This document shows, piece by piece, positions 328 to 4,207 of a DNA stretch of 4,417 nt. The stretch lies in IMG/VR virus record IMGVR_UViG_2529292873_000012; one strand, given 5' to 3'. The notes beneath the pieces are model-generated. The model saw nothing but the letters and a program-made list of their open reading frames with translations, was not told where the DNA came from and ran no database searches. The position numbers and the translations under genes were made by a program. Source of the DNA: a virus (taxonomy: Duplodnaviria; Heunggongvirae; Uroviricota; Caudoviricetes). Position 1 is the first letter of the stretch; each line of letters opens with the position of its first letter.

Positions 328-1322
328 GTGACCGTGAGAGCGCTACTGACCCCTGAAATTGCCCCGCGTATGGGGATCGTCTTGTTCAGACCCGGTTCAG
401 AGCTGATGCCCCTGTTTATGCAGGGGCGTGTCCTGCTGGAGCCTGAGCCGGAACGTTATTCATCTTTCGCCAGTGGTGCCGTTCCGGCAGCATCACAACC
501 GCTGGCGGATGATCCTGCCGTTCGGGCCGTGTTCCGCCATGAGGCGGTGATCCGTCGTGCTGGTGGCGTGGAATGCCTTGAGAGCTGGTTACTTCGTGAA
601 AAAGGCTGCCAGTGGCCTCATTCCGGATGGCACAGCGAGAACATGACCACAATGCGACACGCGCCGGGCGCAATCCGTCTGTGCTGGCACTGCGATAACC
701 TGCTTCGCGATCAGTTCACGGAACGTCTGGAGTCAATGGCAACGGATAACTGTGCCCGCTGGGTGTTGTCCGTAGTCCGTCGTGATCTCGGTTTTGATGA
801 CAGTCACGTTGTGACAATGCCTGAACTGTGCTGGTGGCTGGTTCGTAATGACCTGGCGGATGCCTTACCGGAAAGTGCAGCCCGTAAGGCCCTGAGATTA
901 CCGAAGCCTGTTGTGCCGTCTGTCACCCGGGAGAGTGACCTTGTGCCTTCGGTTCCTGCCACCAGCATTATCCAGGATAAAGCGAAAAAGGTGCTGGCGC
1001 TGAAAGTGGATCCGGAGTCGCCGGAGTCTTTTATGTTACGCCCAAACGTCGCCGCTGGGTTAATGAAAAGTACACGCGCTGGGTTAAGACACAGCCGTGT
1101 GCATGTTGTGGAAAGCCCGCTGATGATCCCCACCACCTGATAGGCCACGGTCAGTGTGGAATGGGTACAAAAGCGCATGACCTTTTTGTGTTGCCTTTGT
1201 GCAGAAAGCATCACGACGAGCTGCATGCGGATACCGTGGCATTTGAAGAGAAGTATGGCTCCCAACTGGAGCTGATATTTCGTTTTATCGATCGCGCGCT
1301 GGCAATTGGCGTACTGGCGTAA
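328..1322 (+). pseudogene. ydfU: YdfU/DUF968-family prophage protein, disrupted: body in frame +1 (328..1140), conserved C-terminal Cys/His motif in frame +3 (981..1322)
   Basis: Frame +1 ORF of 270 aa (CWHCDN motif) ends at TGA 1138-1140. Frame +3, open from 981 after TAA 978-980, encodes …FYVTPKRRRWVNEKYTRWVKTQPCACCGKPADDPHHLIGHGQCGMGTKAHDLFVLPLCRKHHDELHADTVAFEEKYGSQLELIFRFIDRALAIGVLA* ending at TAA 1320-1322, 13 nt before the Q start. The two frames overlap between 981 and 1140. Start is ambiguous (GTG 328, GTG 334 with GAGG at 325-328, or ATG 370). Confidence 0.55.
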
Positions 1323-2160: not shown

Positions 2161-2195
2161 GGGCTTTGTATACCCGACGTTAAGAAAAAGTAGAA

Positions 2196-2221
2196 AACCC
2201 GCTGATGAGCGGGTTTTGTGC
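2196..2221. terminator. Rho-independent terminator, bidirectional: tR'-like for the short pR' transcript and terminator for the convergent cspF-like gene
   Basis: Stem CCCGCT (2198-2203) / AGCGGG (2208-2213), loop GATG, followed by TTTTGTGCTTT on + and preceded by an A-run (GAAAAAGTAGAAAA) that gives a T-run on the - strand. Confidence 0.7.
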
Positions 2222-2509
2222 TTTAAATGGGGCAATGGTAATGTTGAATCTCATCCCGGGACTCATGTCTGTTAACTTATTATTTAGCTGGTGACTTGGT
2301 TATTTGCCTGATGTTTAAAATGTTTTCTTCCAGTACAATGTCCCTAAACACAATGAGTCTGCTTATTATATTATTAGCAGAGCTATTACGGCCAAAGTAC
2401 AGCATAAGCTTTTAAAGCCAATCAACCAGTCATCAAGACAGACGGGGTTATTCATAAAAACTCTCCATGTGTGATCCGATGGGGCCTGAAATTAAAGCTT
2501 TAATATAGC

Positions 2510-2722
2510 TCATGAAAGGTAAACATTGGCAGCTGAAGGGCCACGCAGACCATTTATCCGGCAAAATTCCACGCGTAATCCGGTGGTAATTTCTTCTGCA
2601 TCGCGGAGATTGAGCGCTGAAACATGAAGCTGGACATCGATACGACCATCGGATGGGGTGATAAGACCCTTGCCGCTTTTGCCGTCAAAGGTTTTGACAA
2701 TTCCTGTCATTTTACGGGACAA
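2510..2722 (-). CDS. cspF: Cold-shock-like protein, CspF/CspH subfamily, 70 aa
   Basis: Translation [27 protein letters not shown]…[21 protein letters not shown] matches the CspF/CspH subfamily from memory. Divergent from the cspB-like gene as in Qin. Predicted start is TTG (2720-2722 on +) with AAGGA 7 nt upstream; an in-frame ATG lies 4 codons downstream. Stop TGA. Confidence 0.85.
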
Positions 2723-2826
2723 AAAAATTCCTTAATACTGATAACTTGGCGCACTATACACACGTTCCTGAAGAAAGCTATAGTTTTTTGATGGGGTTGA
2801 AGATGGCTGGATGTCTAAAATAAACA

Positions 2827-2861
2827 TTGCTTCATATGTTCAACTATGCGTTAATGATTGC
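2827..2861 (+). promoter_or_regulatory. cspB-like promoter (CspA-type, extended -10)
   Basis: -35 TTGCTT (2827-2832), 17-nt spacer, TGcGTTAAT extended -10 (2847-2855), comparable to cspA TTGCAT / TGgCTTAAT. Predicted start near 2862 gives a leader of about 161 nt. Confidence 0.5.
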
Positions 2862-3022
2862 GTCGGTTTGAAGAACAGACGATATACGAAGTAGTTTACT
2901 AAAGCAGTTCTCATTTCAGGTGTTATTCACTTATTCCTTCTTTGAGTCTCTCCAATTAAGTACGAAGTCGTTTCTGTTATGCAAACCATTTATGCCGAAA
3001 GGCTCAAGTTAAGGAATGTAGA
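2862..3022 (+). promoter_or_regulatory. Long cspB 5' leader with cold-box-like and upstream-box elements
   Basis: GGTTTGAAGAACAGAC (2866-2881) resembles the cspA cold box GGTTTGACGTACAGAC; AAAGCAGT is conserved; the GCCGAAAGGC upstream box (2995-3004) precedes the AAGGA SD (3011-3015). Confidence 0.6.
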
Positions 3023-3238
3023 ATGTCAAATAAAATGACTGGTTTAGTAAAATGGTTTAACGCTGATAAAGGTTTCGGCTTTATTTCTCCTGTTGATGGT
3101 AGTAAAGATGTGTTTGTGCATTTTTCTGCGATTCAGAATGATAATTATCGAACCTTATTTGAAGGTCAAAAGGTTACCTTCTCTATAGAGAGTGGTGCTA
3201 AAGGTCCTGCAGCAGCAAATGTCATCATTACTGATTAA
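3023..3238 (+). CDS. cspB: Major cold-shock protein CspB-like, 71 aa
   Basis: [71 protein letters not shown] carries the RNP1/RNP2 motifs (KGFGFI, VFVHF); AAGGA SD 7 nt upstream; stop TAA 3236-3238. Confidence 0.9.
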
Positions 3239-3518
3239 AATTCATCGCTCGTCTGTATACGATAACGAAGAAGGCTGATGCCTGAGTAGAGATACGGACA
3301 GAGTAGTGAATATTGGATCTCTTTAATAAAAAATAAGGAGGTCCAATACATGAAACAATGGCTAGCATATTTGGCAAAATCTTAATCAGGAAAAGTATGC
3401 TAACCATTGTGGTGAAGTGCAGGTTTGCTGCATGAATAGTTTTACAGCAGAAGCTAACTGCTGGCATGGCAAAACAAAGTGCGTAAGTGGATGACTCCCA
3501 CAAAAAGCACCACAATCT

Positions 3519-3545
3519 CAAACCCGCTCAGGCGGGTTTTTTATT
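3519..3545. terminator. Rho-independent terminator (strong on +, weaker on -) between cspB-like and the zinc-ribbon gene
   Basis: Stem CCCGC (3523-3527) / GCGGG (3532-3536), loop TCAG, then TTTTTTATTAT; preceded by CAAA. Nearly identical in stem and 3' context to the terminator at 2196-2221. Confidence 0.7.
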
Positions 3546-3601
3546 ATCTGCTTTAAATATATTATTAAAATATAAAAAATACTTGTTACTAATAAAATCA
3601 A

Positions 3602-3772
3602 TCAGGCTACAGCTTTAAGATTTGTCTGGAATACTTTGTTGCAATGAGGGCAGATCAAAAGGGCACCTTTTTGTACTCTTGAAAAACTGTGTTCTGACTC
3701 TTGGGTGCAGTTTGGGCAGGAACATTTAACGAGATAATTACGGCGTGATTTTGAGTTTTTACGTTCTGACAT
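3602..3772 (-). CDS. ynfU: Small zinc-ribbon protein (YnfU-like), 56 aa
   Basis: MSERKNSKSRRNYLVKCSCPNCTQESEHSFSRVQKGALLICPHCNKVFQTNLKAVA has two CxxC pairs. The ATG at 3770-3772 (- strand) has AGGA 7 nt upstream; the longer track ORF starting at 3823 has no SD. The symbol is from recollection of a 56-aa zinc-binding protein in Qin and is tentative. Confidence 0.55.
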   Translation of the reverse strand: MSERKNSKSRRNYLVKCSCPNCTQESEHSFSRVQKGALLICPHCNKVFQTNLKAVA

Positions 3773-3991
3773 AGGCTTTTCCTGTATAAATGGCCGTATA
3801 CAGTACACTAAATATGAAAACATTTCTCGTATTATTATTTTATATATGACTTTCTTTCAAAATAATTACCCACATTTTTAATGTGTATGTTTTTTTAGCG
3901 CCGTTGAGAACAACGTGTGCTGTCAAAACTACCCCGTAGACTCCGATCTTTTCAAACATATTGCACCATCCGTGTACATCGGGGTGAGGAT

Positions 3992-4207
3992 ATGAAATCA
4001 ATGGATAAGTTAACAACAGGTGTTGCCTATGGCACATCGGCGGGTAATGCTGGTTTCTGGGCATTGCAGTTACTCGATAAAGTAACTCCGTCACAGTGGG
4101 CTGCAATCGGTGTGCTGGGTAGCCTGGTTTTTGGCCTGCTGACGTATCTGACAAATCTTTATTTCAAGATTAAAGAAGACAGGCGTAAGGCTGCGAGAGG
4201 AGAGTAA
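3992..4207 (+). CDS. essQ: Class II holin / pinholin, phage 21 S-like, dual-start motif, 71 aa
   Basis: [71 protein letters not shown] is very close to phage 21 S21 as I recall it. GAGGA SD at 3986-3990; two in-frame starts (ATG 3992 and ATG 4001, Met1 and Met4); stop TAA 4205-4207. The track ORF from 3917 is an unsupported N-terminal extension. Confidence 0.85.

Follow-up and report, generated by a model that had tools for sequence, protein, structure and literature searches.

Two look-alike terminators, probably independent, flank the cspF–cspB pair of a Qin-type prophage: a bidirectional tR′ and the terminator of a structured cspB 3′ UTR

The two repeat modules on either side of the cspF–cspB pair are most probably independent Rho-independent terminators that lie at two convergence points and use the same stem in parallel, with no local duplication involved. 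The left one is the tR′ of Qin, a bidirectional terminator that is shared with the opposing cspF–ynfS unit, while the right one follows cspB. What was acquired is a cold-shock cassette of three genes (cspF, cspB, ynfU). Where similar terminators border a moron, they are easily misread as scars of duplication or insertion, and here the comparative data say otherwise. The locus is familiar but had been described poorly, and the analysis establishes its layout. The window is the whole stretch of 4,417 nt that was analysed, and its features are as follows.

1336–2088, + strand, late-gene antiterminator Q (ydfT/quuQ; ORF, annotated ydfT in K-12)
2120–2163, + strand, putative pR′-type late promoter and initial transcribed region (read from the sequence)
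2187–2228, both strands (bidirectional), module 1, tR′ (fold, inverted repeat, mapped K-12 ends, orthologues)
2366–2455, − strand, ynfS, 29-amino-acid small protein (exact match to K-12 YnfS)
2510–2722, − strand, cspF (ORF, K-12 annotation)
2862–3254, + strand, cspA-type thermoregulator of cspB, 5′ UTR and CDS (Rfam RF01766)
3023–3238, + strand, cspB CDS (ORF)
3310–3355, + strand, 14 bp hairpin in the cspB 3′ UTR (fold; mapped 3′ end directly after it)
3403–3522, + strand, conserved four-way-junction RNA domain in the cspB 3′ UTR (alignment, covariation, covariance model)
3520–3547, + strand, module 2 hairpin, cspB terminator (terminator scan, fold, K-12 terminus, orthologues)
3549–3558, + strand, right copy of TGCTTTAAAT, between the cspB terminator and the ynfU stop
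3602–3772, − strand, ynfU, zinc-knuckle small protein (ORF, K-12 annotation), convergent with cspB
3966–4207, + strand, right edge of the variable block and holin essQ (homology to csp-less relatives resumes at 3966–3980)
3992–4207, + strand, holin essQ (ORF, annotation)

The coordinates and strings of the preliminary description are exact: positions 2194–2230 read AAAACCCGCTGATGAGCGGGTTTTGTGCTTTAAATGG and positions 3519–3560 read CAAACCCGCTCAGGCGGGTTTTTTATTATCTGCTTTAAATAT, with the same orientation and the same order of blocks. Each module consists of a AAACCCGC(T)/GCGGGTTTT hairpin followed by an exact TGCTTTAAAT, and the blocks in common are AAACCCGCT (9 nt), GCGGGTTTT (9 nt) and TGCTTTAAAT (10 nt; the 10-mer below). 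To call the modules near-identical is nevertheless an overstatement. The loops (GATG versus TCAG), the spacer between stem and 10-mer (1 versus 8 nt) and the flanks all differ, and a pairwise alignment matches the three blocks and nothing outside them. Both hairpins are strong (z of about −4.3 to −5.6 upon folding) and they are the two best terminator-like sites of the window in a terminator scan. Each is a GC-rich stem-loop followed by a U-rich tract, and the published K-12 termini place 3′ ends in vivo in or just after this tract. The idea that intrinsic terminators stand on either side of the csp pair is therefore sound.

Q is a Q-lambda-family protein interrupted by a Cys-rich insertion, and it matches PDB entry 7ubm_Q ('Antitermination protein Q') in two stretches using phmmer (E = 2.6e-36). 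Downstream of it, TTGCAT (2120–2125), a 17 nt spacer and TAAGAT (2143–2148) form the layout of a pR′ promoter, and the initial transcribed sequence AACGAT+GGG (2155–2163) is the sigma70 pause element of lambda pR′. Judged from these elements, both promoter and pause activity are likely, and pR′ is conserved in all relatives with the same Q. Module 1 is the first terminator after pR′ and the pause element, with Q upstream and the holin downstream, which is the position of a lambdoid tR′ and agrees with what was first proposed for the left module. In SfV and Ayreon the annotation marks a terminator at this site. The core of hairpin 1 (2194–2217) is AAAACCCGCT-GATG-AGCGGGTTTT with a 10 bp stem, which is extended by AAAGTA/TGCTTT pairing of 2187–2192 with 2219–2224; the left 10-mer occupies 2219–2228. 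The fold has an energy of −30.5 kcal/mol (z = −5.6) and coincides with inverted repeat I8. The flanking tracts are UUUUGUGCUUU on the plus strand and UUUUCUACUUUUU on the minus strand, and because the hairpin is thus bordered by both A's and T's it also stops the cspF–ynfS transcripts that arrive from the opposite side. This is in agreement with the 3′ ends mapped in K-12 at around 2223–2227 on the Q strand and around 2189 on the cspF/ynfS strand (PMC10687069, Supplementary Data 2–4). These data come from RNAtag-seq/Term-seq of K-12 at 37 °C, and the K-12 sequence is identical at these sites. Polymerase starting from pR′ (at about 2155) would halt at tR′ after some 70 nt unless it is modified by Q.

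Hairpin 2 (AAACCCGC-TCAG-GCGGGTTT followed by TTTTATTAT) has an 8 bp stem and a U-rich tract, UUUUUUAUUAU, on the plus strand. It is positioned at the end of the conserved cspB 3′ UTR and would end the cspB transcript there, closing its structured 3′ UTR. A K-12 3′ terminus at 1641031 (about 3546 in the window) has a signal of 0.993 and rank 140 (PMC10687069). Since the minus-strand U-tract UUUGAGAUUG is poor and no ynfU-strand 3′ end is listed at hairpin 2 among the published K-12 termini (PMC10687069), we assign bidirectional function to hairpin 1 only. Hairpin 2 and its tail through TTTATTA are orthologous to the cspB terminator of the phage-plasmid Cyrano, and the homology of the cspB unit to Cyrano stops at 3546, 2 nt before the right 10-mer. 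Orthologous hairpins also follow cspB at loci L115 and L142, and neither these loci nor Cyrano carry Q or pR′. In some genomes an IS200 insertion is observed at 3545/3546.

The origin of the shared stem follows from the orthologues of each terminator. Orthologues of tR′ in csp-less phages already carry the AACCCGC..GCGGGTTTT stem, which means that neither hairpin was copied from the other. As the stem was present in the lineage of each terminator before the two met, their likeness reflects parallel use of the stem and not local duplication. An intermediate tR′ allele in Escherichia sp. E1V33 connects allele A to allele B, and homology among the tR′ alleles stops inside the left 10-mer, after GTGC. 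The explanation that the stem is simply ubiquitous was rejected, as only one ACCCGC..GCGGGT hairpin occurs among about 25 terminator-like sites in a 150 kb sample of K-12; our argument consequently rests on lineage and not on ubiquity. Rare among chromosomal terminators (the string occurs 27 times in the rows of the TRS table), the AACCCGC stem recurs in lambdoid late regions and appears to be common in lambdoid and mobile DNA contexts only. Because short GC-rich palindromes bear little phylogenetic signal, gene conversion between the two hairpins may also have contributed.

Comparison with relatives that have the same Q (mEp460, PhiR47_1, Ayreon, SfV and Stx2c phages) defines the block in which these terminators lie. 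Homology is lost at around 2172–2222 and is resumed at around 3965–3980, just 5′ of the holin ATG. The left edge of the variable block thus falls at or in tR′, as anticipated in the preliminary description; in at least eight IMG/VR prophages the csp block starts at position 2031 of the window, inside Q. The right edge is a different matter. The block takes in ynfU and extends for about 400 nt past the right repeat, and it is this larger segment, not the one between the repeats, that is replaced in related prophages. In the relatives the slot after the same Q is filled by tRNAs, a DNA methylase, stx2c or small ORFs, and the csp-less relatives are also without ynfU. The csp block therefore has the properties of a moron, namely autonomous transcription units at a fixed slot that only some related phages carry. 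Within E. coli, the segment 2172–2520 is whole in 1406 of 1417 genomes and 3239–3991 in 1623 of 1653. A related-locus search with CspB returned only identical Qin-type copies, which are informative for breakpoints and not for diversity.

The cspF–cspB–ynfU cassette, including the 3′-UTR element, is conserved across Enterobacteriaceae (at least ten genera), with a ynfU homologue in the same position in Kosakonia, Enterobacter, Kluyvera and Superficieibacter, which places the right repeat inside the cassette. The cassette is a moron that sits between tR′ and the holin. By analogy with lambda Q, modified polymerase would have to pass both terminators on its way to the lysis genes; to get to the holin, late transcription would have to cross the cspB terminator and read cspF and ynfU in antisense. 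The cspF–cspB pair is paralogous to the chromosomal cspH–cspG pair (77% over 2520–3137), and the cspB thermoregulator matches RF01766 with 158.8 bits (E = 1.2e-42). It had been suggested that each csp gene has a 3′ UTR of about 290 nt. The distances to the stems are indeed 292 and 282 nt, but the resulting picture is misleading. The cspF tail contains a translated gene, ynfS (2455–2366), the product of which has been detected experimentally (PMC6001520; bioRxiv 10.1101/511675), as has the YnfU protein (bioRxiv 10.1101/511675). The cspB tail in K-12 has, besides the end at around 3546, an earlier one at +118 (terminus 1641222, 'cspB distant primary', 3′ UTR of 118 nt, about 3355 in the window; PMC10687069).

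The 10-mer speaks against the independent-terminator reading. TGCTTTAAAT occurs twice in the window where 0.04 occurrences are expected, an exact 10-mer shared by two 45 nt downstream flanks has p of about 7e-4 upon shuffling, and the rate of such sharing among random non-coding 45-mers of the window is about 5e-3. Among approximately 1590 mapped K-12 3′ termini it is found at these two sites only and is therefore not a general terminator-context motif; an origin as a ubiquitous terminator-context sequence, the possibility that would have counted against the preliminary reading of the repeats, was rejected on this basis. Being both improbable by chance and no general context, the coincidence is left unexplained by two independent terminators, and the rarity of the AACCCGC stem in chromosomal E. 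coli terminators also weighs against them.

The 10-mer pair could instead be a target-site-type duplication or microhomology joints around a segment at about 2229–3548, comprising ynfS, cspF and the cspB gene together with its 3′ UTR and terminator, that would have entered between tR′ and ynfU in a forebear of the Qin-type prophages. An exact 10 bp direct repeat directly after the terminator on each side (p of about 1e-3) is what such joints would leave, and the homologies are suggestively placed, that to Cyrano ending just short of the right copy and that among tR′ alleles ending within the left one. Nevertheless we regard this as quite improbable. A chimeric query joining 2109–2228 to 3559–3678 found no empty site in 5426 complete E. 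coli genomes (no place covering at least 80% of the query), and the exact empty-site junction pattern occurs in no contig in IMG/VR, so that no presence/absence polymorphism bounded by the repeats is seen. In several other genera cspB and ynfU are adjacent and convergent without the 10-mer, which argues that ynfU arrived together with cspB and not earlier, and ynfU is likewise missing from the csp-less relatives. No transposase or recombinase is present in the segment. The repeats had been put forward as possible recombination joints on the understanding that insert boundaries elsewhere would contradict this, and the boundaries in related prophages do not coincide with them.

That module 2 is a duplicated tR′, produced by moron insertion or unequal recombination and leaving two tR′ in the late operon, is hardly credible. 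The two modules do share stem and orientation, there is a likeness between the module 2 tail GGGTTTTTTATTATCTGC and the tail of lambda tR′, GGGATTTTTTATATCTGC, and real tandem pR′–tR′ duplications exist in relatives (L054 type, PhiR63_1, HannyBb). These genuine duplications, however, span the 3′ end of Q and pR′ and lie upstream of cspF, whereas modules 1 and 2 have only the stem arms and the 10-mer in common and differ in loop, spacer, leader and downstream sequence. Most of the case falls with the Cyrano-type orthologues, in which hairpin 2 ends cspB in replicons without Q or pR′. The combination expected of a local duplication, similarity beyond the stem bases together with ancestral absence of the copy, is not found for module 2. 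A functional element selected at both sites would account for the improbable coincidence of the 10-mers. As downstream DNA it could tune termination or Q read-through, it could be a protein-binding site, or on the minus strand (ATTTAAAGCA) it could be an element upstream of the cspF–ynfS and ynfU terminators. TGCTT(T) can pair with upstream AAAGTA/AAGCA in both modules and so extend the hairpin, and the left copy finishes at the mapped tR′ 3′ end. A common function is nonetheless very unlikely: the first bases of the left copy are part of tR′ and are transcribed, whereas the right copy is located shortly beyond the RNA 3′ end; the two copies stand at unequal distances from the stem; and hairpin 2 has no reported 3′ end on the ynfU strand. 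The 10-mer is moreover substituted independently at both sites in the diverged lineage Escherichia sp. E1V33 (where the right copy reads TGATTTAAAT) and at the left site in L040, and neither tR′ alleles B and C nor the cspB terminators of other contexts have it.

In addition to being the cspB terminator, hairpin 2 closes a folded RNA. The four-way junction upstream of it contains helices P1 (3409–3415 with 3509–3515), P2 (3419–3433), P3 (3447–3461) and P4 (3488–3502), and its invariant parts are the P3 loop AAGCUAA and the 12 nt single-stranded AAAGUGCGUAAG. In an alignment of 22 distinct homologues from at least ten genera, RNAalifold finds compensatory changes in 9 of the 25 pairs, and 98.2% of cells are paired versus 90.7% in shuffles (0/500) and 24–63% in slid controls. 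The homologues were gathered with exact anchors in P3 and J3/4, and an independent anchor gave the same invariance. The covariance-model hit scores 126 bits. The structure is thus kept through compensatory substitutions over divergent homologues, as in a conserved structured RNA. It follows cspB-type genes in Escherichia, Enterobacter, Kosakonia, Kluyvera, Leclercia, Phytobacter and Superficieibacter and in phage-plasmids. The domain belongs to no Rfam family (a search at E ≤ 1 gave spurious Trp_leader and P9 hits on the terminator only), no ncRNA is annotated at this position in K-12, and literature searches found no cspB 3′ UTR RNA, so that the element appears to be undescribed. The supplements of PMC7815308 hold no 3′-end table for this locus. 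ARAGORN finds nothing that would make the junction tRNA-like, and the invariant segments pair with the cspB 5′ UTR no better than shuffled oligonucleotides do in seven homologues.

In the published K-12 data the sharp 3′ end at about 3546 and the end at about 3355 bracket a segment of about 190 nt, and a stable 3′-UTR-derived RNA of this size may accumulate. In cold adaptation the domain may work as an sRNA, bind a protein or influence mRNA stability. The most far-reaching reading, which we hold to be somewhat short of probable, is that hairpin 2 is the 3′ end of an undescribed conserved structured RNA of about 110 nt, with the further ∼190 nt species and the role in cold adaptation included. 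Given the covariation, the very strong K-12 3′ end and the absence of an Rfam family, the fold offers a concrete candidate for a new RNA element linked to cold shock, and this could outweigh the finding on the repeats.

The closest known counterpart of module 1 is the lambda tR′/6S RNA system (pR′–qut–tR′). As in lambda, module 1 follows a Q-lambda-family gene and precedes the lysis genes, and pR′ has the same layout and spacing, with an identical pause-inducing start AACGATGGG and an identical CAACGATGGG. The terminated RNA would, however, be about 70 nt here compared with 194 nt in lambda, the hairpin sequence is unrelated to that of lambda, module 1 also terminates the opposing cspF–ynfS unit, and a 1.8 kb moron separates it from the holin. 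With its palindromic GC stem between an A-tract and a T-tract and its mapped K-12 3′ ends on both strands, hairpin 1 resembles the bidirectional terminators of convergent genes of the SEnd-seq/Term-seq class, from which hairpin 2 differs by its poor minus-strand U-tract. The csp block occupies the same slot as other phage morons (stx, tRNA islands after Q) and has its own promoters and terminator. It differs in that other genera also have the cassette away from lambdoid late regions and in that its left terminator is the resident tR′, which was not brought by the block. Finally, cspB resembles the cspA-family mRNAs in its 5′ UTR and CDS, which match the RF01766 thermoregulator, but carries its structured domain without an Rfam match in the 3′ UTR; the chromosomal paralogue cspG lacks this RNA domain and is followed by ymcF–ymcE–gnsA instead.

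The window covers the late-control region of a Qin-type lambdoid prophage. Qin of K-12 is 96% identical to it from position 1006 onwards, and full-length matches are found in other E. coli prophages and in phage 2H10. The features are as follows.

First feature of the window, end part of a KilA-N gene
328–1322, plus strand, ydfU (DUF968), between the KilA-N gene and Q
1336–2088, Q (ydfT)
2194–2217, hairpin 1
2455–2366, minus strand, ynfS
2722–2510, minus strand, cspF
3023–3238, cspB, with a cspA-type thermoregulator (Rfam RF01766, E = 1.2e-42)
3520–3539, hairpin 2, with a T-run after it
3772–3602, minus strand, ynfU
3992–4207, holin gene essQ
Last feature, after essQ, ydfR

A CCCAAA(A)CG run in ydfU (window ∼1043) is one A short compared with mEp460, Ayreon and SKA5. 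The missing A splits this DUF968/HNH gene into 328–1140 and 1161–1322, and the gene is either a frameshifted pseudogene or carries a homopolymer sequencing error.

The two terminator-like sites that flank cspF–cspB had been described as near-identical, and the strings and coordinates in that preliminary description are exact. The stem arms AAACCCGCT and GCGGGTTTT and the 10-mer TGCTTTAAAT (2219–2228 and 3549–3558) are common to both sites in the same order and orientation. The loops differ, the spacer between stem and 10-mer is 1 nt on the left and 8 nt on the right, and nothing further can be aligned; 'near-identical' is therefore too strong. Both sites fold into a strong hairpin, and these are the top two terminator-like sites of the window. 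They are real, ordinary terminators of separate ancestry.

An atlas of RNA 3′ ends in K-12, which is identical in sequence to the window at the terminator locus, covers this region (PMC10687069, Supplementary Data 2–4). Its 'Fold seq' entries were confirmed on thrL to stop at the terminus. The termini at the locus (K-12 position, then window position) are listed here.

1642350 and 1642354, ∼2227 and ∼2223, Q strand, at hairpin 1
1642388, ∼2189, cspF–ynfS strand, at hairpin 1
1641031, ∼3546, cspB strand, labelled cspB.ynfU.IGR, signal 0.993, rank 140
1641222, ∼3355, cspB, labelled 'distant primary', 118 nt past the cspB stop and behind a 14-bp hairpin

With 3′ ends on both strands, hairpin 1 is thus bidirectional in vivo in K-12, and the end at ∼3546 shows that hairpin 2 terminates the cspB strand. 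The atlas holds no ynfU-strand 3′ end at hairpin 2, the minus-strand tail of which is U-poor.

The left site is tR′. The Q upstream of it is a member of the Q-lambda family (PDB entry 7ubm, E = 2.6e-36). This Q is followed by a promoter consisting of TTGCAT (2120–2125), a 17-nt spacer and TAAGAT (2143–2148). After TAAGAT comes CAACGATGGG, identical to the start of the lambda pR′ transcript, which from established lambda biology we take to be the sigma70 pause element. Hairpin 1 lies ∼40 nt beyond CAACGATGGG, so that the terminated RNA would be ∼70 nt long. In all relatives with this Q the promoter is kept together with the initial ∼17 nt of the transcript, and a terminator then occurs at the same place, annotated as such in SfV and Ayreon. 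Three alleles were observed at this position: allele A in the window, K-12 and Tritos, allele B (AAGAACCCGCCnCTGAGCGGGTTTTTTTGTGCC) in mEp460, PhiR47_1, Ayreon, SfV, 720R4 and Stx2c phages, and allele C in SKA5 and Salmonella phage sal3. The tR′ leader of Escherichia sp. E1V33 is intermediate between A and B, and the alleles are therefore treated as orthologous.

The right site belongs to cspB and not to tR′. The cspB homologue of the phage-plasmid Cyrano is 72% identical across window 2845–3546, a match that spans the 5′ UTR, the coding sequence, the 3′ UTR, the hairpin TAAACCCGCCAACAGGCGGGTTTTC and a TTTATTA tail, and that stops 2 nt short of the 10-mer. Its neighbours are hicAB and dnaE; there is no Q. 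The proposal that this site is a duplicate of tR′ is not supported: hairpin and tail also trail cspB in Cyrano. Similar hairpins, AACCCGCC..GGCGGGTTTT, are also found 3′ of cspB in the related locus L115, Superficieibacter and Klebsiella phage pJN2-26. The AACCCGC stem was therefore present in the lineage of each terminator before the two sites came to lie side by side.

The repeats had alternatively been read as the recombination joints of an acquired block. In relatives with the same Q, close homology is lost at ∼2172, a weak similarity of tR′ extends as far as GTGC at 2221, and homology returns only at 3966–3980, directly before the holin ATG; between these borders they carry tRNAs, a methylase, small ORFs or stx2c. 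The right border lies well past the right repeat, and a constructed empty-site query gave no match in 5,426 E. coli genomes, nor did the exact junction pattern in IMG/VR; such joints are not supported. Among E. coli genomes the block is intact in 1406 of 1417 cases for 2172–2520 and in 1623 of 1653 for 3239–3991. Using tblastn, divergent cspF, cspB, the structured element of its 3′ UTR and convergent ynfU are found in Kosakonia, Enterobacter, Kluyvera and Superficieibacter, mostly without a nearby Q or holin; beside cspF–cspB–element in Phytobacter, Leclercia and other genera, ynfU went undetected by tblastn. The right repeat therefore lies within a conserved cassette. Downstream of the cspF homologue, Kosakonia, Phytobacter, Leclercia and related genera have a small, distantly YnfU-like CxxC...CxxC zinc-ribbon ORF, which takes the place of ynfS in the Escherichia layout (related loci L138, 4780–4940, L140, L145, L155 and L165).

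Several other breakpoints occur. The csp block begins at 2031 in at least eight IMG/VR prophages, where a first, diverged pR′–terminator is followed, 1.55 kb further downstream, by a Q 3′-end remnant and a second pR′–tR′ (allele A). This tandem layout (Q–pR′-like terminator, 1.55-kb insert, Q remnant from 2031 with pR′–tR′ of allele A, csp cassette) is seen in the loci L054 (779–6862), L027, L031, L033, L052, L055, L066 and L118 and in phages PhiR63_1 and HannyBb. A recurrent Tritos-type deletion of 258 bp (2262–2519; 35 IMG/VR loci) takes out ynfS and the cspF stop codon, as in Tritos (L007). In E1V33 cspF is wholly gone (∼2233–2803) while cspB, the 3′ UTR element and ynfU are retained. An IS200-family insertion sits at 3545/3546, exactly between the T-run of hairpin 2 and the right 10-mer (loci L223, 618–1324, L045 and L250; E. 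coli elppa5, H92), and locus L091 carries a ∼1.26-kb, IS3-sized insertion at ∼3403, the 5′ edge of the element.

The 10-mer pair is most likely chance or a neutral micro-event. A common exact 10-mer in both 45-nt downstream flanks has p ∼7e-4 by shuffling, and for non-coding 45-mers drawn at random from the window the sharing rate is ∼5e-3. Among ∼1590 mapped K-12 3′ termini this 10-mer occurs at these two sites only. The coincidence is therefore real and not general to terminators, and the 10-mer is not a ubiquitous terminator context. As a source of this coincidence target duplication is very unlikely. None of the breakpoints found (2031 start, 2262–2519 deletion, IS200-family and IS3-sized insertions) matches a one-copy 10-mer junction. 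The left copy lies inside the terminated RNA and the right copy starts 2 nt past the RNA end, making a common RNA-level role unlikely. Neither tR′ alleles B and C nor the cspB terminators of other loci contain the 10-mer, and it varies in E1V33 (left TGTTTTAAAT, right TGATTTAAAT) and in locus L040 (left TGCTTTAGAT). A functional motif is likewise very unlikely.

The lead worth following is the RNA of the cspB 3′ UTR, the terminator pair itself being of low interest. This UTR is strongly structured (z = −7.7), and its distal part (3403–3522, plus strand) is conserved 3′ of cspB-type genes in at least ten genera and in phage-plasmids. The structure shared by 22 distinct aligned sequences is a four-way junction (stems P1–P4) of 25 pairs, nine of which show compensatory changes. 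Paired cells amount to 98.2% versus 90.7% in shuffles (0/500), and slid controls are 24–63% paired. The P3 loop AAGCUAA and a 12-nt single strand, AAAGUGCGUAAG, are invariant, and the same holds in loci from an independent anchor. Searching with a covariance model gave a single copy in the window (126 bits) and none in the csp-less phages or the K-12 chromosomal sample. Rfam has no family for the element, the K-12 annotation has no ncRNA at its site and our literature searches found no report of a cspB 3′ UTR RNA. ARAGORN gave no tRNA reading of the junction, and pairing of the element with the cspB 5′ UTR was no better than in shuffled controls. Enterobacter-type homologues lack the canonical hairpin and have a U-run directly after P1. 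In Raoultella lignicola (L150, ∼4465–4560), tandem GCCTGAAA units replace the 5′ half of the element (P1–P2), with P3, the invariant strand and P4 remaining. The strong mapped K-12 3′ ends at ∼3355 and ∼3546 bracket ∼190 nt, and this segment could be a stable 3′-UTR-derived RNA. Within 3333–3385 (plus strand), a perfect Shine–Dalgarno sequence, TAAGGAGGT, stands 7 nt 5′ of the ATG of an 11-codon ORF (MKQWLAYLAKS). The Shine–Dalgarno sequence is sequestered in a 14-bp hairpin (3310–3347), the 3′ end at ∼3355 falls inside the ORF, and Cyrano has no conserved counterpart of this ORF.

The tail of lambda tR′, GGGATTTTTTATATCTGC (∼985–1010 in the lambda locus L170), resembles that of hairpin 2, GGGTTTTTTATTATCTGC (window 3534–3552), probably by chance. 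The same AACCCGC stem is found in tR′ of K-12 DLP12, upstream of essD, in a second terminator of mEp460-type phages and in tR′ of PhiR49_2. In DLP12 and PhiR49_2, which have a different Q type, the tR′ stem is TTAAACCCGCC..GAGCGGGTTTTT (K-12 577275–577283, essD 5′ UTR, TRS table; related locus L004, 1967–1986). The AACCCGC stem is rare in a 150-kb K-12 chromosomal sample, yet recurrent in lambdoid late-region terminators, and seems to be characteristic of phage and mobile DNA, not of E. coli terminators generally.
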